Program-made: the position numbers and the translations under genes | Part shown: positions 1,265 through 20,872 of the stretch, piece after piece | Position numbering within the stretch: the first letter of the stretch is position 1 | Layout of the letters: each line of letters starts with the position of its first letter | Virus record (IMG/VR): IMGVR_UViG_3300008050_000019 | Strand: one strand, 5' to 3' | Origin: a virus | Length of the DNA: 24,883 nt | Notes under the pieces: generated by a model | Told to the model about the DNA's origin: nothing | What the model saw: only the letters and a program-made list of their open reading frames with translations | Databases searched by the model: none

Positions 1265-1846
1265 TTAAAGTTTATAATTCGTACGTTTCTGCCATTCTCT
1301 AAATTCACTTCCCTCTATTGTGCTTGGGATAGTATAAATTCCGTGGATGTTCTCTAGTAATGATTGAGGTAAAATATTTAGTTTCTGTGCGGTCCCCGGT
1401 ATAAAGATAGGCTCTAAATTATCTGGGCCATAAATTCTATCAATAAAAGGGCGAATTGACATCGGTGCACTTTCTCTAATTAACTCGCCCATAGAAAAAC
1501 ATTCATCAACAGATAGTTTTCTATCAGTAGAAACGTACATATGTATATTTCCTGTGGCTGACTTTATCGCAGCATAGCTGCCGCCAGTAATAGGAAATGC
1601 TTCTGATTGCTCCCATAATTTAAAAGCTTTATAATTAGGCGTGTCAATATCAACCCACATTATATTTTTCTTTCCGGCATGTTCTAATAGCTCGCATGCT
1701 GGGACGCCTGTTAAAATGCCTTTTGCTGAACATTCTTGTAGGAATTCGAATTTTTCGTCAAGTGAAGAAAAAGAAATGTTATGTGTTTTTGCTCTTTCTT
1801 TTGAACCATCAGGCAAAAGCTTAGAATATATAAACCCGTATGTCAT
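1265..1846 (-). CDS. Hypothetical protein (193 aa)
   Basis: ORF overlaps the upstream gene's stop by 4 nt (ATGA). No recognisable motif. Confidence 0.5.
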   Translation of the reverse strand: MTYGFIYSKLLPDGSKERAKTHNISFSSLDEKFEFLQECSAKGILTGVPACELLEHAGKKNIMWVDIDTPNYKAFKLWEQSEAFPITGGSYAAIKSATGNIHMYVSTDRKLSVDECFSMGELIRESAPMSIRPFIDRIYGPDNLEPIFIPGTAQKLNILPQSLLENIHGIYTIPSTIEGSEFREWQKRTNYKL

Positions 1847-3633
1847 TTTAATACCTTATCAATCTCTGATGTCCAGCCCTTTCTATCATTTGGCCATGCC
1901 TTCTTTAAATGACGAACAGACGGGATCGCAATCCTGAACTGTTTTGCTTCATCAATGAAATCATCTTCACCTTTCCATTGCTTTCTGTCGCCCATTCTTG
2001 TTGCACTCCAGGGAGTGCTAATGAGGTCTTCGTCACCTGGGTCTACGTTGGATATATAATTGTCATCATCTGGTGGTTGGAAACTATCATCATACTCATC
2101 ATCCTCCACAGGCCGTAATTCCTCAGGAACGTCCTTATATAATTCAGGAAACTCAGCTCGATGCCATGTATGGTCAACATCACTGCTTATTTGTCTTGTT
2201 GCTTCATCCCATCCACCGGTTCCGTGACCTGCTAATTTTTCGAATGCTGCAGATTTCAACTCAAGAGCGTCTGCTGCTGTATCACTCATGCTACCGTAAT
2301 TCATGCCATTTGGGCCGTTGGCGAAGTCTTTTGTAGCATCAGCGAGAATATTCTCTAATTTAGAAATCTCTGCTTTTTTCATCGTAGGGTCAAGCTTAAA
2401 AGCAATTTCTTTTGATTTTTTGAAGCGATCATATAAGGCAGCTTTTGAAGCAGCATATATAAGCTCTCCTGCGATTGTCGACGCAAGTGCTTTAGCACCT
2501 GGGCTTGTTATAGCAACCGAAGCTGGTTTCATTGCTGCCTTTGCTACACCTGCCAATTTTGCTGGATTTGCTGTCGCTGCAGTGCCCATGGCTGCAGCCA
2601 TACTTTTCAAGAAGCTTCTTCTTGTCGTGCCCTTGGCTTCATCAATGAAATCATCTTCACCTTTCCATTGCTTTCTGTCGCCCATTCTTGTCGCACTCCA
2701 GGGTGTGTCTGTGATGTCTTCGTCACCTGGATCTGTGCTGTGATGATTGTCGGTAGCTTTATCAGCTTGTTGATCATTACGCTCAGTTTCTTTTTCAAAA
2801 TCTTCTGGAAATTCTTCTTTGTACCATTCCCGATTTGCGTCATCAGATATTTTTGCCGCCTGATCAGTCCACGCAGGGGTGCCAAAGCCTGATAAATTGT
2901 CGAATAACTCCATATTGGCATCGAAGGCATCCAACACTTCATCACTATGTAATCCCTCAATACCACCTTCAGGAAAACTCTTCATAGTGTCATTTAGAGC
3001 ATTTTCCAGTTTAGCAACCTCTGCTTTTCTCATCTTAGGATCCAATACACCAATGTGCTTTTTCATTTTGGCCCAGCGATTGTACACCTCAGCTTTCGAC
3101 CAAGCATAACCAAGTTCATTTGCTACAAAGAATGAAAGAGCCCTAGCGCCTGGACTTGTTATCGTTGTTGCCGCAGGCGTCATCGCAGTCTTAGCTACAC
3201 CTGCCAATTTTGCTGGATTTGCTGTCGCTGCAGTGCCCATGGCTGCAGCCATGGACTTTAAGAAGCTTCTTCTTGTTGTGCCTTTTGCTTCGGTGATATT
3301 TTGTGTTTTAAACAAATCACTGTATGTTTGGCCCTCAGATAAACCAAATAAATAACGAAGCAATAATTTCGCTTCCACACTTTCAGGAATTATTGCGTGA
3401 CTATAGGGAAAATCAACACCCACTTCAAGTAGCCCATGGGGAGGTAGAAACCTTCTATCATTGATTGATTCTTCAAGTGAATTTTGTGATTTAACTGTCC
3501 AGTGAAGAGGGTGATAAACCAAGACATCGTAAGTGCCCTCTACAATTTTGAAGCCTTTATCTCTAATTCTTTTGTGTGTTTGCTTATCAGCATCTTTACC
3601 TAAAAAGAATGCTATGGGAGAATCATATTGCAT
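1843..3633 (-). CDS. Large internally duplicated protein (596 aa). Each of the two ~220-aa repeat units begins with a twin-arginine (Tat)-like motif TTRRSFLKSMAAAMGTAATANPA and ends with PWSATRMGDRKQWKGEDDFIDEAK.
   Basis: Long ATG-initiated ORF. The two protein repeat units show mosaic nucleotide conservation (see the repeat features). The N-terminal ~135-aa unique domain has no recognisable family. Confidence 0.6.
   Translation of the reverse strand: MQYDSPIAFFLGKDADKQTHKRIRDKGFKIVEGTYDVLVYHPLHWTVKSQNSLEESINDRRFLPPHGLLEVGVDFPYSHAIIPESVEAKLLLRYLFGLSEGQTYSDLFKTQNITEAKGTTRRSFLKSMAAAMGTAATANPAKLAGVAKTAMTPAATTITSPGARALSFFVANELGYAWSKAEVYNRWAKMKKHIGVLDPKMRKAEVAKLENALNDTMKSFPEGGIEGLHSDEVLDAFDANMELFDNLSGFGTPAWTDQAAKISDDANREWYKEEFPEDFEKETERNDQQADKATDNHHSTDPGDEDITDTPWSATRMGDRKQWKGEDDFIDEAKGTTRRSFLKSMAAAMGTAATANPAKLAGVAKAAMKPASVAITSPGAKALASTIAGELIYAASKAALYDRFKKSKEIAFKLDPTMKKAEISKLENILADATKDFANGPNGMNYGSMSDTAADALELKSAAFEKLAGHGTGGWDEATRQISSDVDHTWHRAEFPELYKDVPEELRPVEDDEYDDSFQPPDDDNYISNVDPGDEDLISTPWSATRMGDRKQWKGEDDFIDEAKQFRIAIPSVRHLKKAWPNDRKGWTSEIDKVLK
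1945..2039. repeat. Intragenic direct repeat R1, copy A (~95 nt). Nearly identical to 2636..2730. Encodes PWSATRMGDRKQWKGEDDFIDEAK on the minus strand.
   Basis: Direct nucleotide comparison: gcttcatcaatgaaatcatcttcacctttccattgctttctgtcgcccattcttgt(t/c)gcactccaggg... is shared with only a few substitutions. Confidence 0.8.
2543..2640. repeat. Intragenic direct repeat R2, copy A (~98 nt). Nearly identical to 3194..3290. Encodes the Tat-like segment GTTRRSFLKSMAAAMGTAATANPAKLAGVA.
   Basis: gctacacctgccaattttgctggatttgctgtcgctgcagtgcccatggctgcagccat...gaagcttcttcttgt.gtgcc is shared with about 6 mismatches, synonymous sites included. Confidence 0.8.
2636..2730. repeat. Intragenic direct repeat R1, copy B. 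Abuts R2 copy A.
   Basis: Near-identical to 1945..2039. Confidence 0.8.
3194..3290. repeat. Intragenic direct repeat R2, copy B
   Basis: Near-identical to 2543..2640. Confidence 0.8.
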
Positions 3634-3666: not shown

Positions 3667-3933
3667 TCATTTGTACAATAATAAAGTCTCCTTGATACGA
3701 GACTCCCTCGTCCTCACGTAGGGTAAAGCATTCATTAAAAAAATCCCGGTCAAGGGTAATAATTGTACTGCTGCCACCGTCGAAGGTAACCTCTTTGCAA
3801 CAATTAACACTTCTGTTGCGACGTTTTTAGGCCAATCTATTATAAGATCTCTACGCAAAATCATGTCGCCTTCGCACAATTGCGAAAACTTATTTTTAAA
3901 GAAGTTTTCTTGCGTGATAAAGTATCTATTCAT
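3667..3933 (-). CDS. Hypothetical small protein (88 aa)
   Basis: ATG at 3933 overlaps the dCMP deaminase stop by 8 nt (ATGAATAG), so it looks translationally coupled. It fills an otherwise 290-nt gap. No motif. The region is locally GC-richer. Confidence 0.3.
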   Translation of the reverse strand: MNRYFITQENFFKNKFSQLCEGDMILRRDLIIDWPKNVATEVLIVAKRLPSTVAAVQLLPLTGIFLMNALPYVRTRESRIKETLLLYK

Positions 3934-4321
3934 TTGTTTTAAACTTTCTTACAAAGATACCAGCAGCCTCTAGTCTATCAATACCATCCGTAATTCTGTA
4001 TTCGACATCATAAACAACTTCATCAATCTCTGCATTTATAATTTTCTTTGCACATTGATCACATGGACTGACTGTAAGATACATAATCTTCTCTTTATGA
4101 CTAGAAAAATCGCATTTGATTAGTGCATTCTCCTCAGCGTGTATTGTGCCGCTCTTGCCAGGTTCATCAGATTCGACCATGTTTGTTCCGCCCTTCTGAT
4201 CACCATTGTATCCAACTGCTAAGACTTGTGAATTATCGCCAGTAACGATAACACACCCAACCTTTGTTCTTGGATCAATTGATCTACTTGCCAAAAGACG
4301 AGCTGTCGACATCCAGATCAT
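3926..4321 (-). CDS. dCMP deaminase (zinc-dependent cytidine/deoxycytidylate deaminase family). Start placed at the internal ATG (M73 of the track ORF).
   Basis: HAEENAL and SPCDQCAKKI zinc-binding motifs (H[AC]E...PC..C). N-term RPSWDMIWMSTARLLASRS matches the canonical dCMP deaminase N-terminus. The longer track ORF (to 4537) would overlap the DHH gene by 250 nt, so an internal start at 4321 (or 4312) is preferred. Confidence 0.7.
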   Translation of the reverse strand: MIWMSTARLLASRSIDPRTKVGCVIVTGDNSQVLAVGYNGDQKGGTNMVESDEPGKSGTIHAEENALIKCDFSSHKEKIMYLTVSPCDQCAKKIINAEIDEVVYDVEYRITDGIDRLEAAGIFVRKFKTNE

Positions 4322-5222
4322 ATCCCAACTCGGACGAGCCGGTAAGTTGCTGTGCTCCTGAATCCTTAGTTTCAATTCGGAGGGTTTTAATTTGCTTTTT
4401 AAACAAGTCTTCGATGTTTCCTGAGTATTCAAAGCCTGCGATCTCCGCATGCCCTCCGCCTCCGAATCGCTTAGCGATCGAACCGCAGTCAATATGATCG
4501 TGGAAAGATCGTAAGCTAACTTTCGCATATTTCTCATTATGATCCCAATACCACACTATTGCATAATCGCAATCAGGCGCTAATCTCATGCCGACCTCAG
4601 ATATCCACTGAGTCGAGTTAACAACAAGAACACAATGCTCTTGCAGCTTACGCTTAACTGCCTTTGAGCATACTTTATCAATAGCAGCATCTGCGTAAGG
4701 TAAAATGTGTGAACCCTTTCTAATACAATCATCTACAACAGATGCATTCATCATTCTGTCATACGCTGGAAATTCTAGCGGGATCATATCAAAGGCTGTC
4801 GAGAATTCTTTTGAGTATTCCATATAGGGTTTCCAGCCCATATCTCTGTTTTCTATGAACTGCAGAAACCTTGGCGCAGGTATCCCTCGATGAAAATATT
4901 CCCATGCTAAAATTGCTCCGCTGTTGCCCAACTGAAACCAGTCTGGTTTAGCTATTCCATCTAGCATCATCATTGCTGACTTGTGGTGATCTCTCATTTC
5001 GAAATCTTCGGCAGTCGCAATTAAATGTTTTGTTATTTTTTTGTCATATGCAAAATCAAGAACGACGACACGCTTACCAGTCACGTCAGGTGGCGCTTTT
5101 CCATGAAAGGCTGCATGATATTCAGCCTTATTGCCAAGGACTTTCCATGCTGCCCATGCTGCGCCAAAACCATCAGAACAATTTCCATGATAAATAACGC
5201 AGTTGACAGATTTAGGGTCCAT
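4284..5222 (-). CDS. DHH-DHHA1 family phosphoesterase (NrnA/RecJ-like)
   Basis: Motif I YHGNCSDGFGAAWAAW (H.N.D.D..GA). DHH motif in FEMRDHHKSAM. DHHA1 GGGH motif in RFGGGGHAEIAGF. Confidence 0.65.
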   Translation of the reverse strand: MDPKSVNCVIYHGNCSDGFGAAWAAWKVLGNKAEYHAAFHGKAPPDVTGKRVVVLDFAYDKKITKHLIATAEDFEMRDHHKSAMMMLDGIAKPDWFQLGNSGAILAWEYFHRGIPAPRFLQFIENRDMGWKPYMEYSKEFSTAFDMIPLEFPAYDRMMNASVVDDCIRKGSHILPYADAAIDKVCSKAVKRKLQEHCVLVVNSTQWISEVGMRLAPDCDYAIVWYWDHNEKYAKVSLRSFHDHIDCGSIAKRFGGGGHAEIAGFEYSGNIEDLFKKQIKTLRIETKDSGAQQLTGSSELGYDLDVDSSSFGK

Positions 5223-5223
5223 A

Positions 5224-5805
5224 TTAGCCTACCTTCTTTAACAAGCCATTGACTGCTGTAATGTTACGCTTCCACATTTCATGATTTTTTTGCCAAGGGC
5301 TTGATTTAGTAGCTTTAATATCGGCATCAATCTCGTCCTTATAGTGTATATTCCTTGCATAGAATGCATCTGCAATCTCACGCTCAAGACCAAACTCTTT
5401 TTTAACGAATTGCGCAAAGCACATCATATTCACTCTGCGATAACTATCGCGAGCCTCTTGCCGCCACTTTTCGACTGTGTCAAGATACTCAGCCATTCTA
5501 TCTCTATTATAATGTGTGACAGTAACAGGTAGCTCAGTATCATTACACAATGCATCTTCAATAGACAACGTATGAATTATAACTTTTTCTCCGGCGGTAG
5601 TGATTTCAGCTCCAGTAACGTTGTAACATGCTTTGGAGTCATCTCTTTTTAAACGCTCATATGGGCCGTCATAATAGCCGTACTCATGTTGAACGAAGTA
5701 TATATCTGCCCCATTACAGTTACAATCTAGCTCACCTGATGGGTCTGCTTCTTGAAGTTGCTTATAAGCTCTTTTGTCTTCATCTAAAACCAATTCTTTT
5801 GCCAC
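5224..5805 (-). CDS. Hypothetical protein (193 aa)
   Basis: ORF tightly packed between the DHH gene and the endolysin. Cys pair CNCNG near the N-terminus. No family recognised. Confidence 0.5.
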   Translation of the reverse strand: MAKELVLDEDKRAYKQLQEADPSGELDCNCNGADIYFVQHEYGYYDGPYERLKRDDSKACYNVTGAEITTAGEKVIIHTLSIEDALCNDTELPVTVTHYNRDRMAEYLDTVEKWRQEARDSYRRVNMMCFAQFVKKEFGLEREIADAFYARNIHYKDEIDADIKATKSSPWQKNHEMWKRNITAVNGLLKKVG

Positions 5806-6632
5806 TTGACACCATTACGTTTCCATAACGGATATGATTTTAATTTTTTCAATTTATATGATTTTATCAATTCTGAGCCGAAAGTTACACCCTTTTTTAA
5901 GACATCTTCATTTTGGAAATGCCACCACTCTGCTGCCAGCGTATTTCCTTTCGAGAAAAATGACTTTCTTGCGCGGATACTCTTCCAGCCATTTTCTGCC
6001 ATAAGCTCAGTGATGTTAATATAATTTCCTGCAACGGAGATTTTTTTGTGTTCATAGGTGTACGCCTCCAGCTCTAAATATGTGCCTATAGGGTAATCAA
6101 CCCTAGCGTATACAGTCCACCTCCGGTGATCCTCGAGACTCTGGACAACAACATAAGGATCATTGTAAGGATCAACCATACCTGATTTTGTATGAAGATC
6201 ATGAGCAAGACCAAGATAATGAAGGCTCGTTTTACTTCTATTTTTGCCTACTGATGCACTTAGAAGTCTCCTTCCGCCATGAGATGTAAATAGCGCGCCT
6301 GCGCTCTGGATCGTGTCTCTTACTTTTGCTAATGAAGAAACTGCATCTTCCCTTATCCAGGTTTGATTTGCTCCAGATACTATTCCGCCAAGAACAAAAT
6401 CGTCGCATACAATTTTTTTGAACTTTAGCTTCTTCGAACTGGCCGGAGATTTACGTAATGCTCTAATAGTTAATGAACCAACAATACCATCAGCAACAAG
6501 CTTGTGCTTTCTTTGAAAGGCTCGAACTGCTGACTTTGTCGTAGGCCCCATTTGGTCGTCTAAGCGTAGCCGGTGGCCATGCTTATTCAACAATAATTGA
6601 ATCTCTCTTGTCTTCATTTTTCTACCAACCAT
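5784..6632 (-). CDS. Endolysin: N-terminal peptidoglycan-binding domain plus C-terminal M15 (VanY-like) zinc peptidase
   Basis: PG_binding_1-like LQ..LN..G..L..DG..G..T..AVRAFQ....L..DGIVG..T. M15 zinc-ligand motifs SLHYLGLAHDL (S.H..G.A.D) and AAEWWHFQ (EWWHF). Confidence 0.7.
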   Translation of the reverse strand: MVGRKMKTREIQLLLNKHGHRLRLDDQMGPTTKSAVRAFQRKHKLVADGIVGSLTIRALRKSPASSKKLKFKKIVCDDFVLGGIVSGANQTWIREDAVSSLAKVRDTIQSAGALFTSHGGRRLLSASVGKNRSKTSLHYLGLAHDLHTKSGMVDPYNDPYVVVQSLEDHRRWTVYARVDYPIGTYLELEAYTYEHKKISVAGNYINITELMAENGWKSIRARKSFFSKGNTLAAEWWHFQNEDVLKKGVTFGSELIKSYKLKKLKSYPLWKRNGVKWQKNWF

Positions 6633-7477
6633 TTAGTAAATTTAAAAGGCTCAGGTATGACAGAAAAATCAAGTTTCCTTAAAAACCTGACCTCATTTGG
6701 ACCTGATATCTTTGGACAATTTTCTACCACATAGACAGATTTTTTGTGTCTATGCAAAGGCCTTTCCTTAGTATCTCTTTCGATAAGCCTCTTTCCAGTA
6801 AGTTTTTGCAGCATATCAAAATGACGCTCGTAGACGTGAAATGAATCTGCTATATGAAAATAATCACCATACTCTAAACTTGGATAATACTCATGCAGTG
6901 CACATAACATCATTTCATGGATTATGCTGAATGTTGGAGCGTCATTGCCCATTCCGAAAATAGCATCTTGACTCCGCATATGAACAGACATATTCAGCTT
7001 GTTTTCTCTAATCCTGAAGTTCATTGAGTATGTACAAGGAACGTCCTTAGTTTCAGAAAAGAGATGCTTTTTATTTAACAAGACGATGCTTGCACGTCTT
7101 GAATCCCTATCACTCTTAAGTAAATTTAAAACATTATCAAACTGGTTTGTTTTCCCGAAAATGTATTGCCCATAATTCGAATTAATTGTACCATCATCAT
7201 TAACGATGTCACCCCAAATTTTTGCACTATCGATGATGCTTAAATCTCGTTTATCGCCCTTTAAATACCATTGCAGTTCCGTCTTAATATACTTAAGGCT
7301 GAGCTTTCTGTGCTCGAAGTTTTGAAACCTAACCCATGGGGGAAGTGTATAAGAATAGTTCTCTATTTCTAATACCTTCTGGCCTCGTGGTGAACAATAT
7401 TTTCCGTTCTTGTGAAGATCTTTGAAAATCTTTCTAAATGGTTTGCTGTGATAATTCTCTTCTTTTATTTTATTCAT
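6614..7477 (-). CDS. Thymidylate synthase-family enzyme, predicted deoxycytidylate 5-hydroxymethylase (Asp at the dUMP/dCMP specificity position)
   Basis: VPCTYSMNFRIRENKLNMSVHMRSQDAIFGMGNDAPTFSIIHEMM aligns without gaps to ThyA [41 protein letters not shown]. The catalytic Cys and Asp169 are conserved. Asn177 is replaced by Asp, exactly 31 residues after the Cys. Confidence 0.65.
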   Translation of the reverse strand: MNKIKEENYHSKPFRKIFKDLHKNGKYCSPRGQKVLEIENYSYTLPPWVRFQNFEHRKLSLKYIKTELQWYLKGDKRDLSIIDSAKIWGDIVNDDGTINSNYGQYIFGKTNQFDNVLNLLKSDRDSRRASIVLLNKKHLFSETKDVPCTYSMNFRIRENKLNMSVHMRSQDAIFGMGNDAPTFSIIHEMMLCALHEYYPSLEYGDYFHIADSFHVYERHFDMLQKLTGKRLIERDTKERPLHRHKKSVYVVENCPKISGPNEVRFLRKLDFSVIPEPFKFTKWLVEK

Positions 7478-8007
7478 TAATCTTCGCTGCCTTCTAAAAA
7501 TGGCATAATTTCGCTCAATTCTCTTTCTAGATCTTCATCGTCGACGTTAATTCTTTTAGTTTCACATGACGTCCAGGACTCAAAATCCGTATATAAACCA
7601 TCAAGCTTGACAAGCATTTCTTTATCAATTTCTTCGAATTGATCGGGACTGCATAATGCGTAGTCTTTCCTAGTGGGAATAATAATCTTTGCGCCGATTC
7701 CAGCATAGAGCCCATCAACCATGCGTAGAATATCTAGGTTTGTTTCCCTATTAAATGCTTGGCTATAGACCCACTCAGATGGGAATGAGCGATCTAAGAT
7801 TATTGATGCCTTTGTTTGCTGCAAGTAGCTTATAAAATATGGATCAGCATACTTTAATGCTTTCACAAAATAACCAGGATCAGCTTTAAAAAACTTTGAC
7901 TCTCTCTTATTCTTAAAATAGGGAATATCCAGCCTTTTTGATAGTTCTTGTGCGATGTTTGATTTACCGCATCTATCTGGGCCTTCGAATATTATTATAC
8001 GCTGCAT
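7477..8007 (-). CDS. dNMP kinase, thymidylate kinase-like (candidate 5-hm-dNMP kinase)
   Basis: P-loop FEGPDRCGKS. DRS(F) motif corresponding to the TMPK DRY motif. Start overlaps the hydroxymethylase stop (ATGA coupling). Confidence 0.6.
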   Translation of the reverse strand: MQRIIIFEGPDRCGKSNIAQELSKRLDIPYFKNKRESKFFKADPGYFVKALKYADPYFISYLQQTKASIILDRSFPSEWVYSQAFNRETNLDILRMVDGLYAGIGAKIIIPTRKDYALCSPDQFEEIDKEMLVKLDGLYTDFESWTSCETKRINVDDEDLERELSEIMPFLEGSED

Positions 8008-8039
8008 AAAGAATTATACACTATAATGTAATAAGTTAT

Positions 8040-9032
8040 CTATGTGTTACTTAGCTTTAGTATTTGTGCTAATTTCATATAAGCGACCTGTCGTGCTATA
8101 CCCACGTCTAAAGTGACTTTAGGTCTCCACTCCAATAATTCCTCCGCCTTTAATGGATTTGCTACGCTATATGACATTACGCCCTTCGGATAGCCATAAT
8201 CTGGATCGCCTGCATCAAGAAGGATATTTTTACCCACATTTTTTTCGATACAACACCGTAAATTAAATAACTTTGTGCTTTTTCCAGTGCCGACGTCGAT
8301 ATATTCATACCCAGAAACTGGTAGTTTGATGTCAAGTGCTGCACTTAGCGCATCGACACAGTCAGTGATGTAGATATAATCACGAACAGAGCCACCGTAA
8401 CATAATCCCTTAACAGGTATTTGCTCGATAGCTGACTCAATGAACTTTGACATGACCATATCACATCTCGACCTGGGACCATACACATTAAAGAGTCTTA
8501 GTGAAATAAACTCTATTCCGAAATTTGTGTTGTAAGTACGACCTAAAAGTTCACCTGACATCTTCGTCATAGCGAATACGCTTTCTGGGCGTGGTCTTAA
8601 TGATGGAAATGTTGTATCAGATCCCAGTACTGACGCATCAGAAGCAAAAATAACTCTCTTAACCGACGCTTCGCGACAAAATTCAAGGATGTTGTTGGTT
8701 CCTTCCACATTCACGCTTTGATATTCTAGCGGATAATCAAATGACTTACTCAAGCTTGCTTGTGCAGCAAGATGATAAACAACATCTACATCACTGAAGA
8801 GTTCTTTGATGTCGTCGTTTCTGATGTCTGCTGTATAAAGAGACATTCTATCTCGCTCAACCCCAGAAAGCCCAAGGTGAATATGTTTCTCGTTCAGTGT
8901 TTGTTCTGCAGTTCTGCCACCCAGAGTATCGTTAAAATTATCGATGCCAATAACTTCGTGCCCGGCCTCTAGTAGGGCTCTACATAAATGTGATCCTATA
9001 AACCCAGCATGCCCAGTTACGATTATTTTCAT
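8040..9032 (-). CDS. NAD-dependent epimerase/dehydratase (extended SDR, GalE-like). The catalytic Tyr of YxxxK appears replaced by Phe (FAMTK).
   Basis: N-terminal Rossmann motif MKIIVTGHAGFIGSHL. LRLFNVYGP matches GalE LRYFNPVGA. The segment aligned to PYGKSK reads VFAMTK. Confidence 0.65.
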   Translation of the reverse strand: MKIIVTGHAGFIGSHLCRALLEAGHEVIGIDNFNDTLGGRTAEQTLNEKHIHLGLSGVERDRMSLYTADIRNDDIKELFSDVDVVYHLAAQASLSKSFDYPLEYQSVNVEGTNNILEFCREASVKRVIFASDASVLGSDTTFPSLRPRPESVFAMTKMSGELLGRTYNTNFGIEFISLRLFNVYGPRSRCDMVMSKFIESAIEQIPVKGLCYGGSVRDYIYITDCVDALSAALDIKLPVSGYEYIDVGTGKSTKLFNLRCCIEKNVGKNILLDAGDPDYGYPKGVMSYSVANPLKAEELLEWRPKVTLDVGIARQVAYMKLAQILKLSNT

Positions 9033-10138
9033 AATGAATGACCTTCAGTTATAAACTCAACGACAGAGTCGACATGAAAATCATGCTGTCTTTGCAGGTG
9101 ATACCGTTGCTCTTCGACAATTTCCTGCCTATTAGCAAGTGACATGTTACGAAGAAGTCTGATTCTATCCATGACGTCAGATGTTTTTTCCACAGTCCAC
9201 AGTGCGCCAAGTAAATTACTTTCTTTAAAAGTATGCGGAACCATCGCGGGACAGTTTACTGCAAGTGCTTCTAAATATCTCGGTGACATAAAACCCACCT
9301 CATAATATCTGGGCTTCGAGATGTGTGTAGTACAAATAAATTTATTTAACATTTTCATAGAATCAAAGAAGTTCATCCTATGATTAAACGCAACTTCTCG
9401 ATGTGTTGATATTAATGCTGTTGGCCGAGGGCGCTCGGGTGATGACTGTAGCCAGTTGCCATACATCGCAGTCTGAATGCCAGCTATCCGTGTACTTTGT
9501 TTTAAGTTAAAGAAATAATTTTCAAACTCATCGTCTCTTTCGTAATTATTTCCAATATATCCATATATCGGATATGGATCTGCAGTAGGCAACATTTCTT
9601 TCCAGTCTGTCCAGAATGGTAGCGAGACCCTATCCCGCGTTAAACGATTCGTCTCAAATGACGGGTCAGCGATGATAAGATTTGGCCACTTTTCTTCGTC
9701 TTTTGCCGTCAGCTTCAAGTCTGTATCCCAAACGATAATGGGGATTTTATCATGATAGTATGCTAGCAGGGCACACTGTCTATCAAGATCGGCCTCATAC
9801 TTGAGGGGATCATACTTCGGGTGAGTTTTGTCATTTTTGTATGTGGACCATCTCCACTCCATAAAGATGACATCAAGGTCAGGATAGTATTCTTTCTTAA
9901 TGGCAACTTCATTTCCATTTTTCTGGACGTGCACATTCGGGAAACCTTCTAATGGATAAATAGCACCAGCGAAGTGCGTTTCTTCTCTTCTTGGTTGCAG
10001 CAAATATAACATGTTACCTTGATCAACAACTTCTTGCATGAACAGCTTACGACCATATCGGTGCCCATCAGGAGTGTCTAATTGGTGACCAGGACGCATT
10101 GCATCCCAAACGCCATGGTAAGAAAATCCGACTTTCAT
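9029..10138 (-). CDS. Hypothetical protein (369 aa), possibly a transferase. Contains VWDTDLK (DxD-like) but no confident family assignment.
   Basis: Long ATG ORF coupled to its neighbours within the sugar/nucleotide gene block. Confidence 0.5.
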   Translation of the reverse strand: MKVGFSYHGVWDAMRPGHQLDTPDGHRYGRKLFMQEVVDQGNMLYLLQPRREETHFAGAIYPLEGFPNVHVQKNGNEVAIKKEYYPDLDVIFMEWRWSTYKNDKTHPKYDPLKYEADLDRQCALLAYYHDKIPIIVWDTDLKLTAKDEEKWPNLIIADPSFETNRLTRDRVSLPFWTDWKEMLPTADPYPIYGYIGNNYERDDEFENYFFNLKQSTRIAGIQTAMYGNWLQSSPERPRPTALISTHREVAFNHRMNFFDSMKMLNKFICTTHISKPRYYEVGFMSPRYLEALAVNCPAMVPHTFKESNLLGALWTVEKTSDVMDRIRLLRNMSLANRQEIVEEQRYHLQRQHDFHVDSVVEFITEGHSL

Positions 10139-10530
10139 AGTTTACCTTCTATCATGCTAATTGTGTCCTCAAAAATGGGTGATGGCCAATTACCTGGTGT
10201 AATCCACTCCCATTCACCATCGACTTTTTCTGGTTCCATGACTCTTGGAATTCCTTCCCGATTATAACACCTGTAGTATATAGTAACATACTCTTTTTGA
10301 ATCTCTTCAAAAAAATGTAAATTTATCCCTACACGCTTTAGATCTGTAACAATAAGCCCAGTCTCTTCGTATACTTCACGAATTGCTGCAGCACAAGCAA
10401 ACTCGTCAGGATCAACTGAGCCGCCGGGTAAGGCCCATTCACTTGACCCATGTGAACCTTTACGCTTATGCATTAATACTTGTCCAGAGCTATTAACAAT
10501 TGCAATTGCCGTGCCGACGGCGACTTTCAT
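10135..10530 (-). CDS. Nudix hydrolase. Start set at the in-frame ATG (M4 of the TTG-initiated track ORF).
   Basis: Nudix box GGSVDPDEFACAAAIREVYEETGL matches G.5E.7REU.EE.GU. Confidence 0.7.
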   Translation of the reverse strand: MKVAVGTAIAIVNSSGQVLMHKRKGSHGSSEWALPGGSVDPDEFACAAAIREVYEETGLIVTDLKRVGINLHFFEEIQKEYVTIYYRCYNREGIPRVMEPEKVDGEWEWITPGNWPSPIFEDTISMIEGKL

Positions 10531-10535
10531 TTGAC

Positions 10536-11051
10536 TCAAAATACTTTTACCCCAGTTAGATCATACGAGCTAAATACAGATTTGCGTGACGATGGTGGCT
10601 TCCGCCTAATCTGCCTGGGTTTCGGGAGTGTAAACTCTACACCTCTGCCGACCCTTCCCCCTTGGCCAAAATAATTAAGCCAATATCTACCTTTTCGCAC
10701 TGGAATTCCCTGGCTAGTAAGTATCGCAACATCAAGCCAGTGTAGTTCTCTATTGTTAACTATTACGCCAGTATTTCCTGAGGAGGCATTTCTATGCAGG
10801 CGCGCAGACGAAAGCCCAGGCCTAATGAACCCTATCGTTGGACCTCCTGAGTGGCCCCATGCACCAGTCATGCTATCATACCAGACTTCGCCACAAGCGA
10901 GCTTCATACTAAGCTGTTTTTCTAATGACGAAATCTGTCGCTGGCTAAGTCTTACTTTATTGACTATTACATGACAATTTTCACATGCTGCATATAACGG
11001 GCTTAAAAGAAGGGCGGCGCCAAGTGTTGCACTTAACAGTATTTTATTCAT
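10536..11051 (-). CDS. Secreted or lipoprotein-like protein with a GHSGGP motif. Start at the ATG (M8 of the GTG-initiated track ORF). Signal peptide MNKILLSATLGAALLLSPLYAAC.
   Basis: N-terminal hydrophobic signal sequence ending AAC. GHSGGPT resembles the serine-protease GDSGGP motif. The gene is visibly GC-richer than the rest of the window. Confidence 0.5.
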   Translation of the reverse strand: MNKILLSATLGAALLLSPLYAACENCHVIVNKVRLSQRQISSLEKQLSMKLACGEVWYDSMTGAWGHSGGPTIGFIRPGLSSARLHRNASSGNTGVIVNNRELHWLDVAILTSQGIPVRKGRYWLNYFGQGGRVGRGVEFTLPKPRQIRRKPPSSRKSVFSSYDLTGVKVF

Positions 11052-11421
11052 TATCCATAAACTCTCTGGCACGACTCAGCTCAGTAATCGTGCCTTTCCA
11101 AAAGCGCCCACAACAACTACAAAAAAGATCCATATCTTCTTTGTGCCATCGTGCGGCGACATCTTCGCGATGGCACTCAGCAATAGGCATTAAACAAGTT
11201 GAACAACATTCAGCCTCATCCTGTGATTGCTTAAGCCCTGATTTCATTGTGGACTGTTTTAGTATATTCAGCGTTTCTCCTGATAAACCCATGAGAACAT
11301 CATGTATCCTGGCTTCAAGTTTGTCCAAAGGCAGCGCTTCATAGTCTACGTCATTTCTCTGTTTACTTAATTTTAGGAGCTCATGTGATATTGCAGTAAC
11401 TGCATCATCTAAAGCGTTCAT
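11044..11421 (-). CDS. Cysteine-rich zinc-finger protein (possibly DksA/TraR-like). Start at the ATG overlapping the upstream stop (ATGA).
   Basis: CCSTC...CH...CSCC cluster near the C-terminus, preceded by a helical region (LDKLEARIHDVLMGL). Confidence 0.45.
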   Translation of the reverse strand: MNALDDAVTAISHELLKLSKQRNDVDYEALPLDKLEARIHDVLMGLSGETLNILKQSTMKSGLKQSQDEAECCSTCLMPIAECHREDVAARWHKEDMDLFCSCCGRFWKGTITELSRAREFMDNE

Positions 11422-12431
11422 CAGAAAAGCCTTTCTTTCCACGTTCGTGGCAATTGTGCATTATGAATCTCAATAGGCAAGTGATATTTAAATTTTTGTG
11501 TGCCTCGTTGCTTAACATAGTTAACAATTGATTCTAAACCCTCATTTAATGTTGTCTTTGTTTCATATCCGAACCTTTCTCTAATTTTGTTTGCTGAGCA
11601 TGTTGCTAGCATAACTTCACAGGGTCGTGCTTTATGATACTCGATATCAAGCTTAAAATCTAGTATGGAGGCGATCCTATCGGCTAATTCATTAATAGTA
11701 ACAAACTCTTCGTCTGGGCCGATATTAAACTTCTCACCATGAACTTTTAAATCACAATCAATCAGCCTTGTTAAAACGAACAAATCATCGTTAACAAAAC
11801 TAAAGCATCTTTTTTGGTTTCCATCGCCGTAAACGATTGGCTGACGCCCTTGAAGCATTAAATTAGTCATTATGGATGCCACATTTCTGAAGGGATCATC
11901 ATACTTTTGGCGTGGACCAATAATATTATGGGGAATGGCATGGACAACTTCAAAGCCATGAATTCTACCCAGCAGATCAAGCTGCATCTCAGCTGCATAT
12001 TTCGCAACGCCATAAGGGTCTTCAGGAGATGGCTGCATTGATTCAGTAAATGGAACTTTATTCGCACCGTATCTTGCCATCGAAGAGCAATTAATGAACC
12101 TTTTTACCCCTGAGTTTATCCCAGCTGTCGCTAATGTAACAGTCCCGGTAACGATGTTGTCAGTAATTAATGCTGGACTAAAAACTGACAGCCCTTCATA
12201 TGCTAACGCTGCTGTGTGGAAAATAACATCACATCCAGCAGTCAGCTCCGTCATTAGCTCTAAATCTCTTACATCGCCCGTATGAAACTCATGCTTGCTA
12301 TTTTGTATGATATTATCATCATACCCGCCTATCATACTATCTACACTAACTACACTATGTCCTAAAGACAATAGTTCCTCAATTAGCCATGAACCAAGGA
12401 AGCCTGCGCCTCCAGAAACCATAATTTTCAT
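11421..12431 (-). CDS. NAD-dependent epimerase/dehydratase (extended SDR; sugar-nucleotide dehydratase or decarboxylase-like)
   Basis: MKIMVSGGAGFLGSWL Rossmann motif. Intact catalytic PYGVAKYAAE (YxxxK). The track ORF starts 6 codons earlier (12449); the MKIMVSGG start is preferred. Confidence 0.65.
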   Translation of the reverse strand: MKIMVSGGAGFLGSWLIEELLSLGHSVVSVDSMIGGYDDNIIQNSKHEFHTGDVRDLELMTELTAGCDVIFHTAALAYEGLSVFSPALITDNIVTGTVTLATAGINSGVKRFINCSSMARYGANKVPFTESMQPSPEDPYGVAKYAAEMQLDLLGRIHGFEVVHAIPHNIIGPRQKYDDPFRNVASIMTNLMLQGRQPIVYGDGNQKRCFSFVNDDLFVLTRLIDCDLKVHGEKFNIGPDEEFVTINELADRIASILDFKLDIEYHKARPCEVMLATCSANKIRERFGYETKTTLNEGLESIVNYVKQRGTQKFKYHLPIEIHNAQLPRTWKERLF

Positions 12432-12489
12432 ATTTATATTATACCACATATGTGAATGCAGTTTACAATAAGTTATATAAAATTTATTC

Positions 12490-13218
12490 TTACTGTGGAA
12501 GACGAGCTGATAGCTTCATACACTTAATTGACGTTTTTTCGTCGAAATAAACTTTAGCTTTGTACGTACGATATTGCCATTGGAGTCTATTTCGAGTGCG
12601 ATACCATTCACTTCCCTCTATTTCAAAACTAAGCTCAATTTTTATTTTTCTTACAAAATCAGGACCATCCCTATATTTTGGCCCATAGAATGCACCAAGT
12701 TCAAAACGAGGAGGTACGACACCCACAGCTCTTTGAAGCATACATTCATCAGCTACCCTAATTTCATTTACGCAGTCGATGAATTTATCTTTATGGGAGT
12801 GCATCAAGCCTGCTCGCAGAATGTCACACTCAATTTTTGATGCTGCTCTGTCAGCAGGGGTCTTTGCTCCTTTTTTTGGGACTGCTGTGACCTTCACAGC
12901 CTCGAGGCCATCAACGTCACAAAGAGATACCCAGAATCTAACATCAGCAACAGGCTCACCGGGGTAAGAGACGAGCCTGAATGTGATTGAATCAAATTCT
13001 TCTGCATTTTTCCTGATATAATACCTATCGAATACAAGCACACTGTCTGCTAGCAATTTTACTGTTTGTGGTTTATCTCGGTGTGGCCATGCAAGAAATG
13101 GATTCTTTGTTTTAAGAAAATCCCATAAGGTTGCATTTCTGTTCTCATTATGAAGTGAAAAAAACCAATCATACCTTAACTTGATATTAGTTCCGAGCTT
13201 CGGAACACAAATCTTCAT
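12490..13218 (-). CDS. Hypothetical protein (242 aa)
   Basis: ATG ORF. No family recognised. Confidence 0.5.
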   Translation of the reverse strand: MKICVPKLGTNIKLRYDWFFSLHNENRNATLWDFLKTKNPFLAWPHRDKPQTVKLLADSVLVFDRYYIRKNAEEFDSITFRLVSYPGEPVADVRFWVSLCDVDGLEAVKVTAVPKKGAKTPADRAASKIECDILRAGLMHSHKDKFIDCVNEIRVADECMLQRAVGVVPPRFELGAFYGPKYRDGPDFVRKIKIELSFEIEGSEWYRTRNRLQWQYRTYKAKVYFDEKTSIKCMKLSARLPQ

Positions 13219-13224
13219 ATCTAT

Positions 13225-13482
13225 CTACCTTTCTTCACGGTATTTTTTGAGCCGCTGACGTACACAAACTGCCATTTCTTTTTCTTTTTCAAGAACTGGA
13301 GCAGCGTCATGAACATAATCACATTTCATACATACCCACGAAAAATCATTCTGGTCCGTAATTAATGCTAGTCCATGGTGAATACCATTCTCAGAAACTT
13401 TGTCATGCCCAAATTTGCAAGGGTGCTTAAGCCACATAACTAAGATCTTAAATGGCTTTAATAAAAATTCTAGTTTAGTCAT
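13225..13482 (-). CDS. Small zinc-ribbon-like protein (85 aa), paralog of 13534..13740
   Basis: Shares W(L/W)x(H/D)PCKFGH...W.C..C.Y.H with the adjacent gene. Confidence 0.5.
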   Translation of the reverse strand: MTKLEFLLKPFKILVMWLKHPCKFGHDKVSENGIHHGLALITDQNDFSWVCMKCDYVHDAAPVLEKEKEMAVCVRQRLKKYREER

Positions 13483-13533
13483 TAGACTTTCTCTCTGCTG
13501 CTCTTTCTGCTATTCTTCTCTTTAATAGATCAT

Positions 13534-13740
13534 TTACAAACCGCTTATGATCATCTTTTTGTGTAAAAAAAGATCAGGTGAATGCAAGTAGTTGCATGTT
13601 TTGCATGCCCATGTATAATTAGCCTTGCTGCGGCTTGGAGTCCAGGGTTCAACATTACCTGACCTATCAAATGCATTATGGCCAAACTTACAAGGGTCAT
13701 CCCACCACTGCTGTAAATAATGAAACAACCTTTTTAGCAT
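13534..13740 (-). CDS. Small zinc-ribbon-like protein (68 aa), paralog of 13225..13482. Start at the ATG overlapping the upstream TAA (TAATG).
   Basis: QQWWDDPCKFGHNAF...WACKTCNYLHSPD. The track ORF begins at an upstream TTG. Confidence 0.45.
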   Translation of the reverse strand: MLKRLFHYLQQWWDDPCKFGHNAFDRSGNVEPWTPSRSKANYTWACKTCNYLHSPDLFLHKKMIISGL

Positions 13741-14579
13741 TAGACTTTTGAAAATAACCAAGGACGTGCATTCCAACCATGGCCAAGGTTATTCCACCCT
13801 CTCTTGTTTAGTCCATCTCTAAATGGCTTACCTACGCGTGTATTCTTGACAATTTTTCCGTCGACATCGGATGTCAGGAAATGGCCGAGTGTAAAGTATC
13901 TATTTTCTGCAGACCAGCAGCTTGCATGCAACAACTTGGCATCGTCTGTGGCATGAGCAAGAACCTTATCAAGCTCAGTAAATACATCACCTACGCCTTT
14001 ATGGCCCACTTTAGCGATATGTTCAACGATTTCGTAGGCTTGAATAACGTCGTATTTACCCTCAGCAGAAGGAACATGTTTCAGGTTAGTTAATCCTGAT
14101 AGATTTTTAAAATATTTAAAAATTTCAACTAGCTCCGCATTGATTTCGCAGTAGTGTACTTCGGCATTAGGGAAGTTTTTAGCCAAAATTATTGAAGAAA
14201 ACCCGGGGCCTGCACCCCAGTCGAAGATTCTCTTAGGATCATTAAACCCATTATCTCTTAACAGCTTAATCCCCCCACATGTAGTTGCGTGAGTCTGGCA
14301 TGTTGAAACCCCCAAAGAATCCCACTTGTAATTCGGGTGTGAATACAGCCACGCAGGATCACGTGTAGTTTTCCATTGCTCAAATAAAGCTTCTGCTGAG
14401 GGCTGCATATACTGCCGAAGTGTACTAAGATCGTCTGGATTCTTAAGTCGCCAATGTTTGGCGAACTCAGCTTCTGACATACCAAGTTTTGTTTTAGCAT
14501 ATTCACTAATTGCACCTTGCAAACCCGCATTGTTATTAACACCGAGTGATTTACATAAGCCGATCGTCTTTATTTTCAT
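13740..14579 (-). CDS. Class I SAM-dependent methyltransferase (not a DPPY/NPPF-type DNA amino-methyltransferase)
   Basis: Motif I IFDWGAGPGFSS followed by the acidic motif II (HYCEIN). Confidence 0.6.
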   Translation of the reverse strand: MKIKTIGLCKSLGVNNNAGLQGAISEYAKTKLGMSEAEFAKHWRLKNPDDLSTLRQYMQPSAEALFEQWKTTRDPAWLYSHPNYKWDSLGVSTCQTHATTCGGIKLLRDNGFNDPKRIFDWGAGPGFSSIILAKNFPNAEVHYCEINAELVEIFKYFKNLSGLTNLKHVPSAEGKYDVIQAYEIVEHIAKVGHKGVGDVFTELDKVLAHATDDAKLLHASCWSAENRYFTLGHFLTSDVDGKIVKNTRVGKPFRDGLNKRGWNNLGHGWNARPWLFSKV

Positions 14580-15623: not shown

Positions 15624-17246
15624 TTATCTCATTTTGTCTTTTACTTTTTTGAGTACTGTGGCCCTGTCTTGCCTGTACTTCTCCTTGTTTTTTAATGTTT
15701 TGCTAGCTCTTAATTCAAGCTGTGATCGTGGAAATTCTGTTGTCCACCGTTTTAGGATGTCATCTGGAGTATCTCTTTTGCCAGCCAGCGTCATTTGAAT
15801 CATGGAGTCTTTACTAGCGTCTGCTTTATCAGCTAAAACACGTATAACATCAGGTGTTAAACTTAGATTATATACTACGCTCATTCTCACTTCCCTAGAA
15901 TGATCACCTGCTAAAGCGAGAAGTATAGATTCAGATGCTAAATTATTTGCTGCTACTTTTCTTCTAACAAGCTCTGATGAATCACTTGCTAAAGTGTTAA
16001 GTATCTCTAAAGAGACTTTCTGATTACTTGCAGTCGTGGCTCTAACTATTTCATCTTCAGCCGTCGAAAGGCTTTCCAGCACGTCAATAGGCGTGTTGAT
16101 ATTTATTGCGAGATGATCTTTTACATAAGTGTTATCAGATGATAACGCACGAAGAGTAGATTGCCCCGTCCGATGATTAAGCGCGACCATGGCTCGGACG
16201 TCGTCCGAATCATCATTTTTAAGCATATCGAGTACCTCAGGAGAAGCATTCCAGCTATCTGCTACGGCCCGTCTAACTTCTTCGTCTGTAGAACTAGCAG
16301 CTTTAACAAGACGCTCATGTGAAGATACTTTAACGTAATCGGTGACTTCTGGCGAAAACTTATACTCTTTCTTGCCCTCTAATGTATCAAGCAGATCAAA
16401 AAATGCATCATATCGAAGCCCGCTGGTAAACTTTTTGAACCTTGGAACAGACGTAATCGCTTTCTTAACGTCTCTTAAAGCAGGATGCTCATGATTCTTT
16501 TTTGTATGATTTTTAATCGCAGTACTAATCTCATCCCAATCGTCACCAAAAGCATCATAAAATTTAAACTTCTTATTGTTATGATCAACTGTTGTTTCAT
16601 TCGGCGCGGATGGTTGAATAACTCCGCCCTTAACGCCAATTGACCACTTCTTCTTCGTATTGTGTTTATCAATTACATAGAAAAGAATTGTATTGTTTAA
16701 AATGTAACTATAAAATAGATTCTCGCCCTTTGTTCTTGCAGTACACCAAACCGTACCACGTCCAATAGAGCATGATGCGTCAACACTTCTTGGCATAAAT
16801 ACAACAAAGTCCTCGGATTCATAAATGTTATCCGCGTCCTTGGCTGCAGCATCATGATCTATCTTAGAGTCTCCAGGAAGCTCTTCAAGCTTCCGGTGGA
16901 GATCGCCAGGTGTCTTATAATTGTTAATATCAGCGTCTTTACCTTTAAGTTTCTGCTTGTTTTTAGCCTTATCAAATGAAATAATGAGAGGTGAAATGTC
17001 TCTGAGAGGTTCATTATTTGAACGTGAAACACGTTCAAGCCACATAAGATATTGCTTTAATTTAGCTTGAGGAAGAACTTGAAGTTTTCCGAAGACTTCA
17101 TCCCATTCTTCTGGAGCCCTGTTAGACTTTTCTTTGATATCATCAATGGTACCCTCACTAAGAAGCTTAATTGCATATTCTAAAAGTTTGTTTTCGCTAG
17201 AGGCACCAGAGATCATCTCTCTAAGTTCAGAAATTTTGACAAGCAT
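15624..17246 (-). CDS. Leucine-rich-repeat-variant (LRV)/HEAT-like repeat protein (540 aa). Its N-terminal ~85-aa domain is duplicated at 24361..24690.
   Basis: C-terminal ~23-aa repeats of the form D...VR..VA.N......L..LA.D. N-terminus MLVKISELRE...EEWDEVFGKLQVLPQAKLKQYLMWLERVSRSNNEPLRD is ~70% identical to the upstream fragment. Confidence 0.6.
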   Translation of the reverse strand: MLVKISELREMISGASSENKLLEYAIKLLSEGTIDDIKEKSNRAPEEWDEVFGKLQVLPQAKLKQYLMWLERVSRSNNEPLRDISPLIISFDKAKNKQKLKGKDADINNYKTPGDLHRKLEELPGDSKIDHDAAAKDADNIYESEDFVVFMPRSVDASCSIGRGTVWCTARTKGENLFYSYILNNTILFYVIDKHNTKKKWSIGVKGGVIQPSAPNETTVDHNNKKFKFYDAFGDDWDEISTAIKNHTKKNHEHPALRDVKKAITSVPRFKKFTSGLRYDAFFDLLDTLEGKKEYKFSPEVTDYVKVSSHERLVKAASSTDEEVRRAVADSWNASPEVLDMLKNDDSDDVRAMVALNHRTGQSTLRALSSDNTYVKDHLAININTPIDVLESLSTAEDEIVRATTASNQKVSLEILNTLASDSSELVRRKVAANNLASESILLALAGDHSREVRMSVVYNLSLTPDVIRVLADKADASKDSMIQMTLAGKRDTPDDILKRWTTEFPRSQLELRASKTLKNKEKYRQDRATVLKKVKDKMR

Positions 17247-19369: not shown

Positions 19370-19400
19370 GCTATGAATTTCACCTTTATCATGATAAAGA

Positions 19401-19430: not shown

Positions 19431-19460
19431 TATCACATTCTAACCGCTGATATCAATTGC

Positions 19461-20851: not shown

Positions 20852-20872
20852 AATGCCTCACAAATGATAACA

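Follow-up and report, generated by a model that had tools for sequence, protein, structure and literature searches.

A predicted 5-hydroxymethylcytosine glycosylation module with a remote relative of T4 DNA beta-glucosyltransferase in an uncultured marine jumbo phage

Results

The stretch of viral DNA analysed here (IMG/VR record IMGVR_UViG_3300008050_000019, 24,883 nucleotides, referred to as the window) belongs to a metagenomic contig of 308,593 bp (samples ERZ27249009 and JGI 3300025133), which turned up independently in assemblies of ENA, JGI and Logan, and its source is an uncultured marine jumbo phage of ~300 kb with a DnaE-type replicase. The GC content is about 39% across the window. 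The window is one minus-strand gene array, to which all genes located at 3926-14579 belong (Table 1) and which includes the genes of a 369-aa glycosyltransferase (GT) related to T4 DNA beta-glucosyltransferase (BGT), of a thymidylate synthase (TS) homolog predicted to be a dCMP hydroxymethylase, of a thymidylate kinase (TMPK)-like enzyme and of two extended short-chain dehydrogenases/reductases (SDR1 and SDR2). An earlier note on this DNA had proposed a co-directional, translationally coupled block devoted to DNA hypermodification. The coupling was borne out by the common orientation of the genes and by their overlapping stop and start codons, with overlaps of 4 nt at the Nudix/GT and GT/SDR1 junctions, 1 nt at the kinase/TS junction and 19 nt between the TS homolog and the next gene. 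The domains named in that note were all found, by Pfam and PHROG profile matches or, in the case of the methyltransferase, by fold prediction. The endolysin, which had not been named, and several orphan open reading frames (ORFs) of the same interval are outside the modification system.

Table 1. Features of the predicted modification module and its interval
Feature	Position	Strand	Basis of assignment
dCMP deaminase, 131 aa	3926-4321	-	Pfam dCMP_cyt_deam_1, E 1e-21; phrog_174, E 6e-40
DHH/DHHA1 phosphoesterase	4284-5222	-	phrog_4771 'DHH phosphoesterase', E 9e-55; DHHA1; DHH and GGGH motifs
Endolysin	5784-6632	-	PG_binding_1; endolysin PHROGs; M15-like HxxxxxxD / WWH motif
TS-superfamily enzyme, predicted dCMP hydroxymethylase (5-hydroxymethyl-dCMP synthase)	6614-7477	-	Pfam Thymidylat_synt PF00303, E 3e-24
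TMPK-like P-loop nucleotide kinase	7477-8007	-	phrog_761 'thymidylate kinase', E 8e-12
SDR1, diverged UDP-glucuronate 4-epimerase family member, coupled to GT	8040-9032	-	Epimerase family, E 3.5e-50
GT-B glycosyltransferase, BGT relative (GT63-like), predicted 5-hydroxymethylcytosine (5hmC)-DNA glycosyltransferase	9029-10138	-	family profile
Nudix hydrolase, complete Nudix box, overlaps GT start codon	10135-10539	-	Pfam NUDIX, E 2e-18
SDR2, GalE-like extended-SDR nucleoside diphosphate (NDP)-sugar 4-epimerase	11421-12449	-	Pfam Epimerase, E 5.7e-41
Class I S-adenosylmethionine (SAM) methyltransferase, small-molecule type, accessory	13740-14579	-	weak sequence matches, E ~1e-4; predicted fold

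The 369-aa protein is a remote relative of T4 DNA beta-glucosyltransferase

Taken by itself, the 369-aa protein gave little in similarity searches. A single-sequence Pfam scan returned only a sub-threshold match to Glyco_trans_1_2, no match was obtained in PHROG, in NCBIfam or, by phmmer, in the PDB, and tblastn found none in 50,697 phage records. An exhaustive profile search retrieved 359 cluster representatives of the family among 1.84 billion proteins, thus the family is small and discrete. A profile was then built from 126 of these representatives and run against every PDB sequence. Its sole significant match was BGT (1bgt, E 3.4e-13), the next glycosyltransferase following at E 0.29, and hhalign of the family against BGT gave a probability of 96.3%. 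The link is visible only with the broad family profile, and the recognition of the family as a remote GT63 relative appears to be new. The protein has the two-Rossmann architecture of the GT-B fold, and R195, R269 and E272 of BGT, its UDP-contacting residues, align with R201, R287 and E290 of the window protein, each at least 90% conserved in the 126 representatives.

The earlier note had made the absence of a glycosyltransferase part of a condition that would refute its own proposal; with a GT-B relative of BGT encoded in the array, this objection does not apply. The DxD-like motif that it had pointed out in the same protein does not count as a GT-A signature, given the GT-B class of the protein. 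Other candidate relationships were tried and rejected: when the narrow family alignment was compared by hhalign with RB69 gp47, an arabinosyltransferase, the probability was 0.8%, and two ORFs considered as hidden glycosyltransferases, unk242 (12490-13218) and unk193 (5224-5805), had no match in Pfam, NCBIfam or the PDB and no homolog outside this phage, and are treated as lineage-specific ORFans.

The TS homolog carries the active-site signature of T4 gp42

The closest solved relative of the TS homolog is T4 dCMP hydroxymethylase (1b49, E 3.5e-19), and among cultured phages RsoM2USA has the nearest homolog, gp10 (ORF10), with 59.6% identity. Against the thymidylate synthase equivalogs of NCBIfam it scored far under every cut-off (75 bits vs 327). 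The protein was aligned with 17 homologs from related loci, RsoM2USA gp10, T4 gp42, RB69 gp48 and ThyA of E. coli, and the ThyA numbering agreed at C146, D169, N177 and L143. According to PMC13326640 (2026), where the ThyA numbering is used, N177D leads to dCMP specificity, L143D/E accompanies hydroxymethyl instead of methyl products, and D169N is the mark of the flavin-dependent 5-hydroxy-dCMP synthases of RB69, DLP3 and RL38J1.

The window protein and all the relatives aligned, together 20 TS homologs from GT-bearing loci, have D143 (L143D), C146, D169 and D177 (N177D), the same residues as T4 gp42. D143 stands three residues ahead of the catalytic Cys, as in gp42, the Cys itself is found in a DVPCT motif, and D177 is part of a GND motif opposite T4 D179. 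In the same alignment RB69 gp48 has N169, and the D169N exchange that typifies its enzyme class was found neither in the window protein nor in any of the 19 relatives. Since the signature is identical to that of T4 gp42, the protein is predicted to be a 5-hydroxymethyl-dCMP (5hm-dCMP) synthase, and the retention of D169 means that 5hm-dCMP rather than 5-hydroxy-dCMP (5ho-dCMP) is the predicted product. As far as the active site tells, the gene thus predicts a dCMP hydroxymethylase, neither a thymidylate synthase nor a 5-hydroxy-dCMP synthase of the RB69 type. The pyrimidine hydroxymethylase of the earlier note is thereby narrowed down: a TS-family hydroxymethylase with the gp42 signature and a cytosine-derived, T4-like base are predicted, while the SPO1-type hydroxymethyl-dU, which had been left as an option, is disfavoured by N177D.

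The proposal that a TMPK-like kinase is coupled to the hydroxymethylase was upheld by the phrog_761 match and by the 1-nt overlap of the two genes, and 5hm-dCMP is the predicted substrate of this kinase. It shares 34% identity over 90 aa with RB69 gp45 (pairwise E 4e-9), and tblastn with its sequence found no match in the phage records. The best PDB match was YorR (3kb2), which was also the top match for DLP3 gp78 (PMC13326640).

The module is conserved in related viral loci

To define a comparative set, IMG/VR was scanned with the GT family alignment, which yielded 27 viral loci on contigs of 8-416 kb with GT identities of 25-49%. Gene content was established by similarity searches with the window proteins, and 35 loci were fetched in all. 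The TMPK-like kinase was found in 23 of the 27 GT loci, mostly directly adjoining the GT, and the TS homolog likewise in 23, at a distance of ~1-8 kb from the GT; of the four loci lacking the TS homolog, three are on truncated contigs. At least one GalE-like SDR is encoded in 21 loci, the dCMP deaminase lies downstream of the module in 18, and the C-terminal part of DnaE lies upstream in 24. The GT stood in a replication or nucleotide-metabolism neighbourhood in every one of the 27 loci, and surface-polysaccharide genes were never seen around it in this set. A typical marine contig of 200 kb (L002) shows the order DnaE, kinase, GT, SDR, TS, SDR, thymidine kinase, DHH, a 1040-aa protein and dCMP deaminase. 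In L031, L033 and L035, which belong to the most distant clade (25% identity), the GT is directly downstream of a dUTPase_2/MazG NTP pyrophosphatase, a DinG-type helicase follows it directly in L031 and L035, and genes of primase, 5'-3' exonuclease, sigma and NusG surround it.

No cultured relative with the full module was found. RsoM2USA, the closest one, has the TS homolog and the Nudix gene but no other part of it, and the paper describing it reports no DNA-modification data; megablast of the island gave no match in the phage records. A literature search found no description of this marine module, and none of these domains is in the MetaGPA paper. Both the tight, conserved GT module in DnaE-replicating jumbo phages and the degenerate SDR1 described below appear to be new.

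Two further proteins were observed around the module. A DUF1848 protein adjoins the GT in L032 (11120-11824) and the TS homolog in L035 (17191-17892), and it could be a further component of the module in the distant clade. The other, a divergent protein resembling Fe/Mn superoxide dismutase (239-919, minus strand; Sod_Fe_C, E 9e-17) with DVWAHSYY instead of DxWEHAYY, is conserved in 17 of the 27 related loci, where it lies at the end of the module on the downstream side.

Sugar-nucleotide enzymes and the accessory methyltransferase

The best PDB matches of SDR2 were the Thermotoga UDP-glucose 4-epimerase 4zrm (E 1e-41) and 6wj9/6wjb, the latter presumably being PelX, a UDP-N-acetylglucosamine (UDP-GlcNAc) 4-epimerase. 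Its Ser/Tyr/Lys triad is intact (SSM...PYGVAK) and its NAD-binding motif is SGGAGFLGS (GxxGxxG). Orthologs with 70-71% identity were found in two relatives (L005 and L009) and others with 34-35% identity in the marine clade, where they directly adjoin the GT, and SDR2 is the SDR type kept with the GT in every clade. SDR1 matched best 6zlj and 6zl6 (E 4e-47), which we take to be the UDP-glucuronate 4-epimerase of Bacillus cereus. Its nearest database homolog is 38% identical, and its NAD-binding motif is kept (TGHAGFIGS).

The 4,6-dehydratases and decarboxylases among the SDR enzymes are characterized by a TDE or TSE acid/base pair, and this motif is absent from both SDR1 and SDR2. A UDP-arabinose route formed by the two SDRs (UXS plus UDP-xylose 4-epimerase) was rejected, as neither has the decarboxylase motif. 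An SDR of the UXS type, resembling UDP-glucuronate decarboxylase (STSEVYG..YDEGK), is encoded in two of the related loci (L024, 3106-4128; L029, 7906-8946), and in another (L025, 9306-10001) a classical adh_short short-chain dehydrogenase adjoins the GT. This variation hints that the attached sugar may differ between lineages, and it is consistent with a diversification of the donor.

The methyltransferase has a predicted Rossmann-like fold with motif I. Neither the (D/N/S)PP(Y/F) nor the PC-Q motif of DNA methyltransferases was found in it, and its profile gave only marginal matches in the PDB.

Enzymes of the nucleotide pool

The gene immediately upstream of the GT encodes the Nudix hydrolase. 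In the distant clade the same slot is held by dUTPase_2/MazG proteins, presumably of the superfamily to which the T4 gp56 dCTPase belongs, which suggests that the Nudix enzyme may be a non-orthologous replacement of a dCTP-clearing enzyme. The dCMP deaminase domain named in the earlier note is present, but its ORF (3926-4537) was over-called: metagenome gene calls place the start at the ATG at 4321, which is probably the real one. The same note counted Nudix and DHH proteins as members of the modification toolkit. Both domains are there, but the DHH protein is not diagnostic, its family being widespread; 105 phage records, among them EL and CcrColossus, contain homologs, and we regard it as an enzyme of general nucleotide salvage, common in jumbo phages and not specific for base modification. 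The assignment of the Nudix protein as a dCTPase is taken up below.

Discussion

Glycosylated hydroxymethylcytosine is a textbook anti-restriction modification, known mainly from the T-even coliphages. The core hypothesis for the window, that a hydroxymethyl-pyrimidine is made before replication and is then glycosylated from a phage-tailored nucleotide sugar, is supported in that it passes every available computational test, and we consider it fairly probable that the module makes glycosylated 5hmC. In the proposed pathway the TS homolog would convert dCMP to 5hm-dCMP, as its active-site signature predicts, the coupled TMPK-like kinase would phosphorylate this product, and a host NDP kinase would complete 5hm-dCTP for incorporation by the phage replicase. 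By analogy with T4 gp56 and cd, the Nudix enzyme may deplete dCTP, and the deaminase may direct dCMP to dUMP for the supply of dTTP. After replication, the GT-B enzyme would use a UDP-sugar to glycosylate the 5-hydroxymethyl groups of the DNA, 5hmC in DNA being the presumed acceptor. The donor would probably be a C4-epimer formed by SDR2, such as UDP-galactose (UDP-Gal), UDP-N-acetylgalactosamine (UDP-GalNAc) or UDP-galacturonate (UDP-GalA), and not plain UDP-glucose, the choice among these sugars being of low confidence. In one subclade the methyltransferase might, speculatively, decorate the sugar further. We infer both the identity of the sugar and its methylation. Such a modification would probably benefit the phage by shielding its DNA from restriction and CRISPR nucleases.

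Several points weigh against this interpretation. The phage is uncultured, the modification is predicted from its genes, and assembled contigs do not preserve a modification signal. The sequence-level match of the GT to BGT is limited to the C-terminal UDP-sugar-binding domain (BGT residues 160-347). In a low-confidence part of the alignment D87 stands opposite D100 of BGT, which is presumably the catalytic base, while the near-invariant Asp of the family is D89, two residues off. The acceptor of the GT is not derivable from fold or homology. A dNMP kinase of the T4 gp1 type was not seen, and neither was a dCTPase of the MazG/gp56 type in the window; the Nudix protein is a candidate dCTP/dCDP pyrophosphohydrolase by its position and by a weak NudG-type match to a pyrimidine (d)NTP diphosphatase (E 7e-6), and it is absent from most related loci. 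The methyltransferase is absent from most related loci, too, being confined to a subclade. From the earlier suggestion of a possibly methylated sugar, the class I fold stands by prediction and the enzyme is of the small-molecule type, but nothing links it to the sugar.

The sugar-nucleotide enzymes also leave part of the case exposed. All NCBIfam equivalog scores of the SDRs were far under the cut-offs, hence the specificity of SDR2 is not fixed by them. In SDR1 the catalytic triad is degenerate, with Asp in place of Ser124 and Phe in place of Tyr149 (SDAS, SVFAMTK), where all 12 aligned homologs have [ST]SS and SPY[AG]x[ST]K. Since the same sequence was present in independent assemblies, this loss is not a sequencing error. 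Of the two sugar-nucleotide epimerases/dehydratases proposed in the earlier note, both belong to the extended-SDR family, but only SDR2 retains the triad; SDR1, lacking the catalytic Ser and Tyr, is probably without active epimerase function, and it may be in decay or may serve the GT as a non-catalytic partner.

The T4 system is the nearest point of reference. As in T4, the window encodes a TS homolog with the gp42 active-site signature, a GT homologous to BGT and a dCMP deaminase (cd in T4), which would supply dUMP for dTTP, and the GT and hydroxymethylase genes are neighbours, just as b-gt adjoins gene 42. Unlike in T4, the kinase is TMPK/YorR-like and not gp1-like, a Nudix protein is found in place of a gp56/MazG dCTPase, and GalE-like NDP-sugar enzymes, of which T4 has none, are encoded by the phage itself. 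The replicase is of the DnaE type instead of family B, and the host and the phage lineage (marine, ~300 kb) are unrelated to those of T4.

An unlikely alternative to glycosylated 5hmC DNA is that 5hmC is made by this module while the GT, the SDRs and the methyltransferase act off DNA, on host surface glycans, virion proteins or a small molecule. The only sequence-level PDB relative of the GT is, however, a DNA beta-glucosyltransferase, and in all 27 loci the GT is surrounded by replication or nucleotide genes, beside the kinase, the TS homolog or an NTP pyrophosphatase. Neither a flippase nor a polymerase, an undecaprenyl-linked enzyme or a structural gene was found adjoining it.

The triad of kinase, GT and TS homolog invites a comparison with another group of phages, in which the sugar is attached to C5 of cytosine through an ether oxygen. 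For RB69 and DLP3, experiments linked this triad with glycosylated cytosine, and the same was proposed for RL38J1, whose DNA contains hexosylated cytosines (PMC13326640). The window resembles these phages in combining a TMPK-like kinase, similar to RB69 gp45, with a first glycosyltransferase and a TS homolog, and in encoding its own sugar-donor enzymes. It would nevertheless be very improbable that the window encodes a flavin-dependent 5ho-dCMP synthase and produces glycosyl-5-hydroxycytosine, despite the shared triad and the similarity of the kinases. The TS homolog of the window and those of all its relatives have Asp at position 169, where RB69 gp48 has Asn, and the GT is from a different family, without similarity to RB69 gp47. 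The donor pathways also differ, SDR epimerases standing in the window against arabinose-5-phosphate isomerase, kinase and uridylyltransferase or UDP-galactopyranose mutase in the other phages.

A uracil-based modification seems to have just as slight a chance. In this case 5hm-dUMP would be made directly, or by the action of the deaminase on 5hm-dCMP, and 5-hydroxymethyluracil would be decorated as in the phages of the SPO1/SP-15 type. The conserved dCMP deaminase of the module would fit such a route, and the SP-15 glycosyltransferases are among the viral structural neighbours of the GT. T4 also has a dCMP deaminase, however, for its ordinary dTTP supply, N177D predicts dCMP and not dUMP as the substrate of the TS homolog, and neither a DNA kinase of the 5-HMUDK type nor an aGPT-Pplase was detected in the window. 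Ordinary nucleotide metabolism without hypermodification, in which the TS homolog would act as thymidylate synthase or as dCMP methylase (giving 5-methylcytosine, as in XP12) and the kinase as dTMP kinase, is less probable still: databases do name the family 'thymidylate synthase', and dCMP deaminase, TS and TMPK do make up the dTTP pathway, but the NCBIfam scores given above fall far short of the cut-off, N177D disfavours dUMP, L143D lets water in and favours a hydroxymethyl over a methyl product, and RsoM2USA, the closest cultured relative, has a separate bona fide Td besides.

Glycosylated 5hmC, the reading that we prefer, has a further parallel in the TET/5mYOX clusters. In those of 'subclass II', epimerase-dependent 5hmC glycosylation was shown for phage glycosyltransferases, and hexosyl (Hex)-, N-acetylhexosaminyl (HexNAc)- and hexuronosyl (HexA)-5hmC were shown as products of TET clusters (bioRxiv 10.1101/2023.12.21.572611). 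The same study found that GT-B enzymes in viral metagenomes are often near thymidylate synthase homologs and epimerases, so the general GT/TS/epimerase arrangement had already been anticipated. As in these clusters, the GT of the window is paired with an epimerase that, as proposed from the genes, supplies the donor. The difference lies in the origin of the base, which is post-replicative in the TET clusters (C5-methyltransferase plus TET) and would be pre-replicative here (TS homolog plus kinase).

A more far-reaching proposal is put forward tentatively, and we hold it to be somewhat more doubtful than not. The 369-aa protein may found a new branch of the GT63 lineage in abundant uncultured jumbo phages of marine and freshwater habitats that replicate with DnaE. 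Phage SDRs, mostly 4-epimerases and in some loci a UXS-type decarboxylase, would retailor UDP-sugars so that a non-glucose glycosyl-5hmC (galactosyl, HexNAc, hexuronosyl or pentosyl) is formed, which is undescribed for the pre-replicative pathway; the sugar might be O-methylated in a subclade, and the dead SDR1 might serve as a non-enzymatic partner of the GT. Should a remote BGT relative accompany a dCMP hydroxymethylase and phage-encoded donor enzymes across hundreds of environmental jumbo-phage lineages, the T-even strategy would be old, ocean-wide and chemically diversified. The gene set (TS homolog, kinase and GT, with or without SDRs and methyltransferase) could then be used for finding new DNA sugars and tools for 5hmC labelling, and such genomes have possibly been under-sampled by modification-sensitive library methods.

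Other features of the window

The endolysin gene, which overlaps the stop codon of the TS homolog, separates the TS gene from that of the DHH protein. In L005 this position is taken by an unrelated Phage_lysozyme gene (13917-14354). The ORFs unk242, unk193, unk132 and unk178 and those of 80 and 85 aa had homologs only within their own phage lineage among the 35 fetched loci. The 178-aa ORFan (10536-11072, minus strand) has a hydrophobic N-terminal stretch that ends in LYAAC in the manner of a lipoprotein signal, which is odd in a nucleotide-metabolism block; this ORFan is not conserved among the relatives. The ORFs of 85 and 80 aa (13225-13482 and 13534-13776, minus strand) are adjacent small paralogs between the methyltransferase and the 242-aa ORFan, and they share the zinc-ribbon-like pattern (H/D)PCKFGH...W(V/A)C(M/K)(K/T)C(D/N)Y(V/L)H, for which no family match was found.

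The DnaE of the phage is a 'fractured gene' (23387-24349, 22491-23513 and 17274-18329, all on the minus strand), the N-terminal (PHP/core) part of which is outside the window. One of its ORFs ends with the conserved GYGFNK motif followed by an N-intein like that of Npu DnaE (CINTYTNEGEL...DHKFRVMDGRMLP), and ~5 kb downstream another ORF opens with a C-intein of 37 aa (MPKIKSFKSIGKHQAYDLEVDHPDHQFYLANGLLTSN), to which SHAVSYAIDSY and the remainder of DnaE are fused. After the N-intein comes a 340-aa protein with ROS_MUCR zinc finger and RAP domain, possibly a free-standing endonuclease. In the relatives L002 and L005, DnaE is uninterrupted. Two families of small tandem paralogs lie between the DnaE fragments (18721-21942, minus strand): six ORFs of ~62-77 aa at 20633-21942 start with a motif close to M-L-x-S-E-F-K-I-G-Q-L-I-Y-D, and four ORFs of 92-117 aa at 18721-20639 have MORN-like repeats ending in HREDGPA. 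The three examples examined had no Pfam match.

Promoter and terminator scans of the window did not rise above the shuffled expectation, and tRNA and Rfam scans gave no match. The 596-aa protein encoded at 1843-3633 (minus strand), for which no homolog was found in the other loci, consists of two copies of a ~220-aa repeat, each with a twin-arginine-signal-like stretch in mid-protein (GTTRRSFLKSMAAAMGTAATANPAKLAGVAK) and with the end DPGDEDxxxTPWSATRMGDRKQWKGEDDFIDEAK. Finally, an ORF of 111 aa (24361-24696, minus strand), which lies upstream of the DnaE fragment, is a paralog of the N-terminus of a 540-aa HEAT/LRV-repeat protein (15624-17246, minus strand), and both contain SNRxPEEWDEVFxKLQVLPQAKLKQYLxWLERVSRSN.

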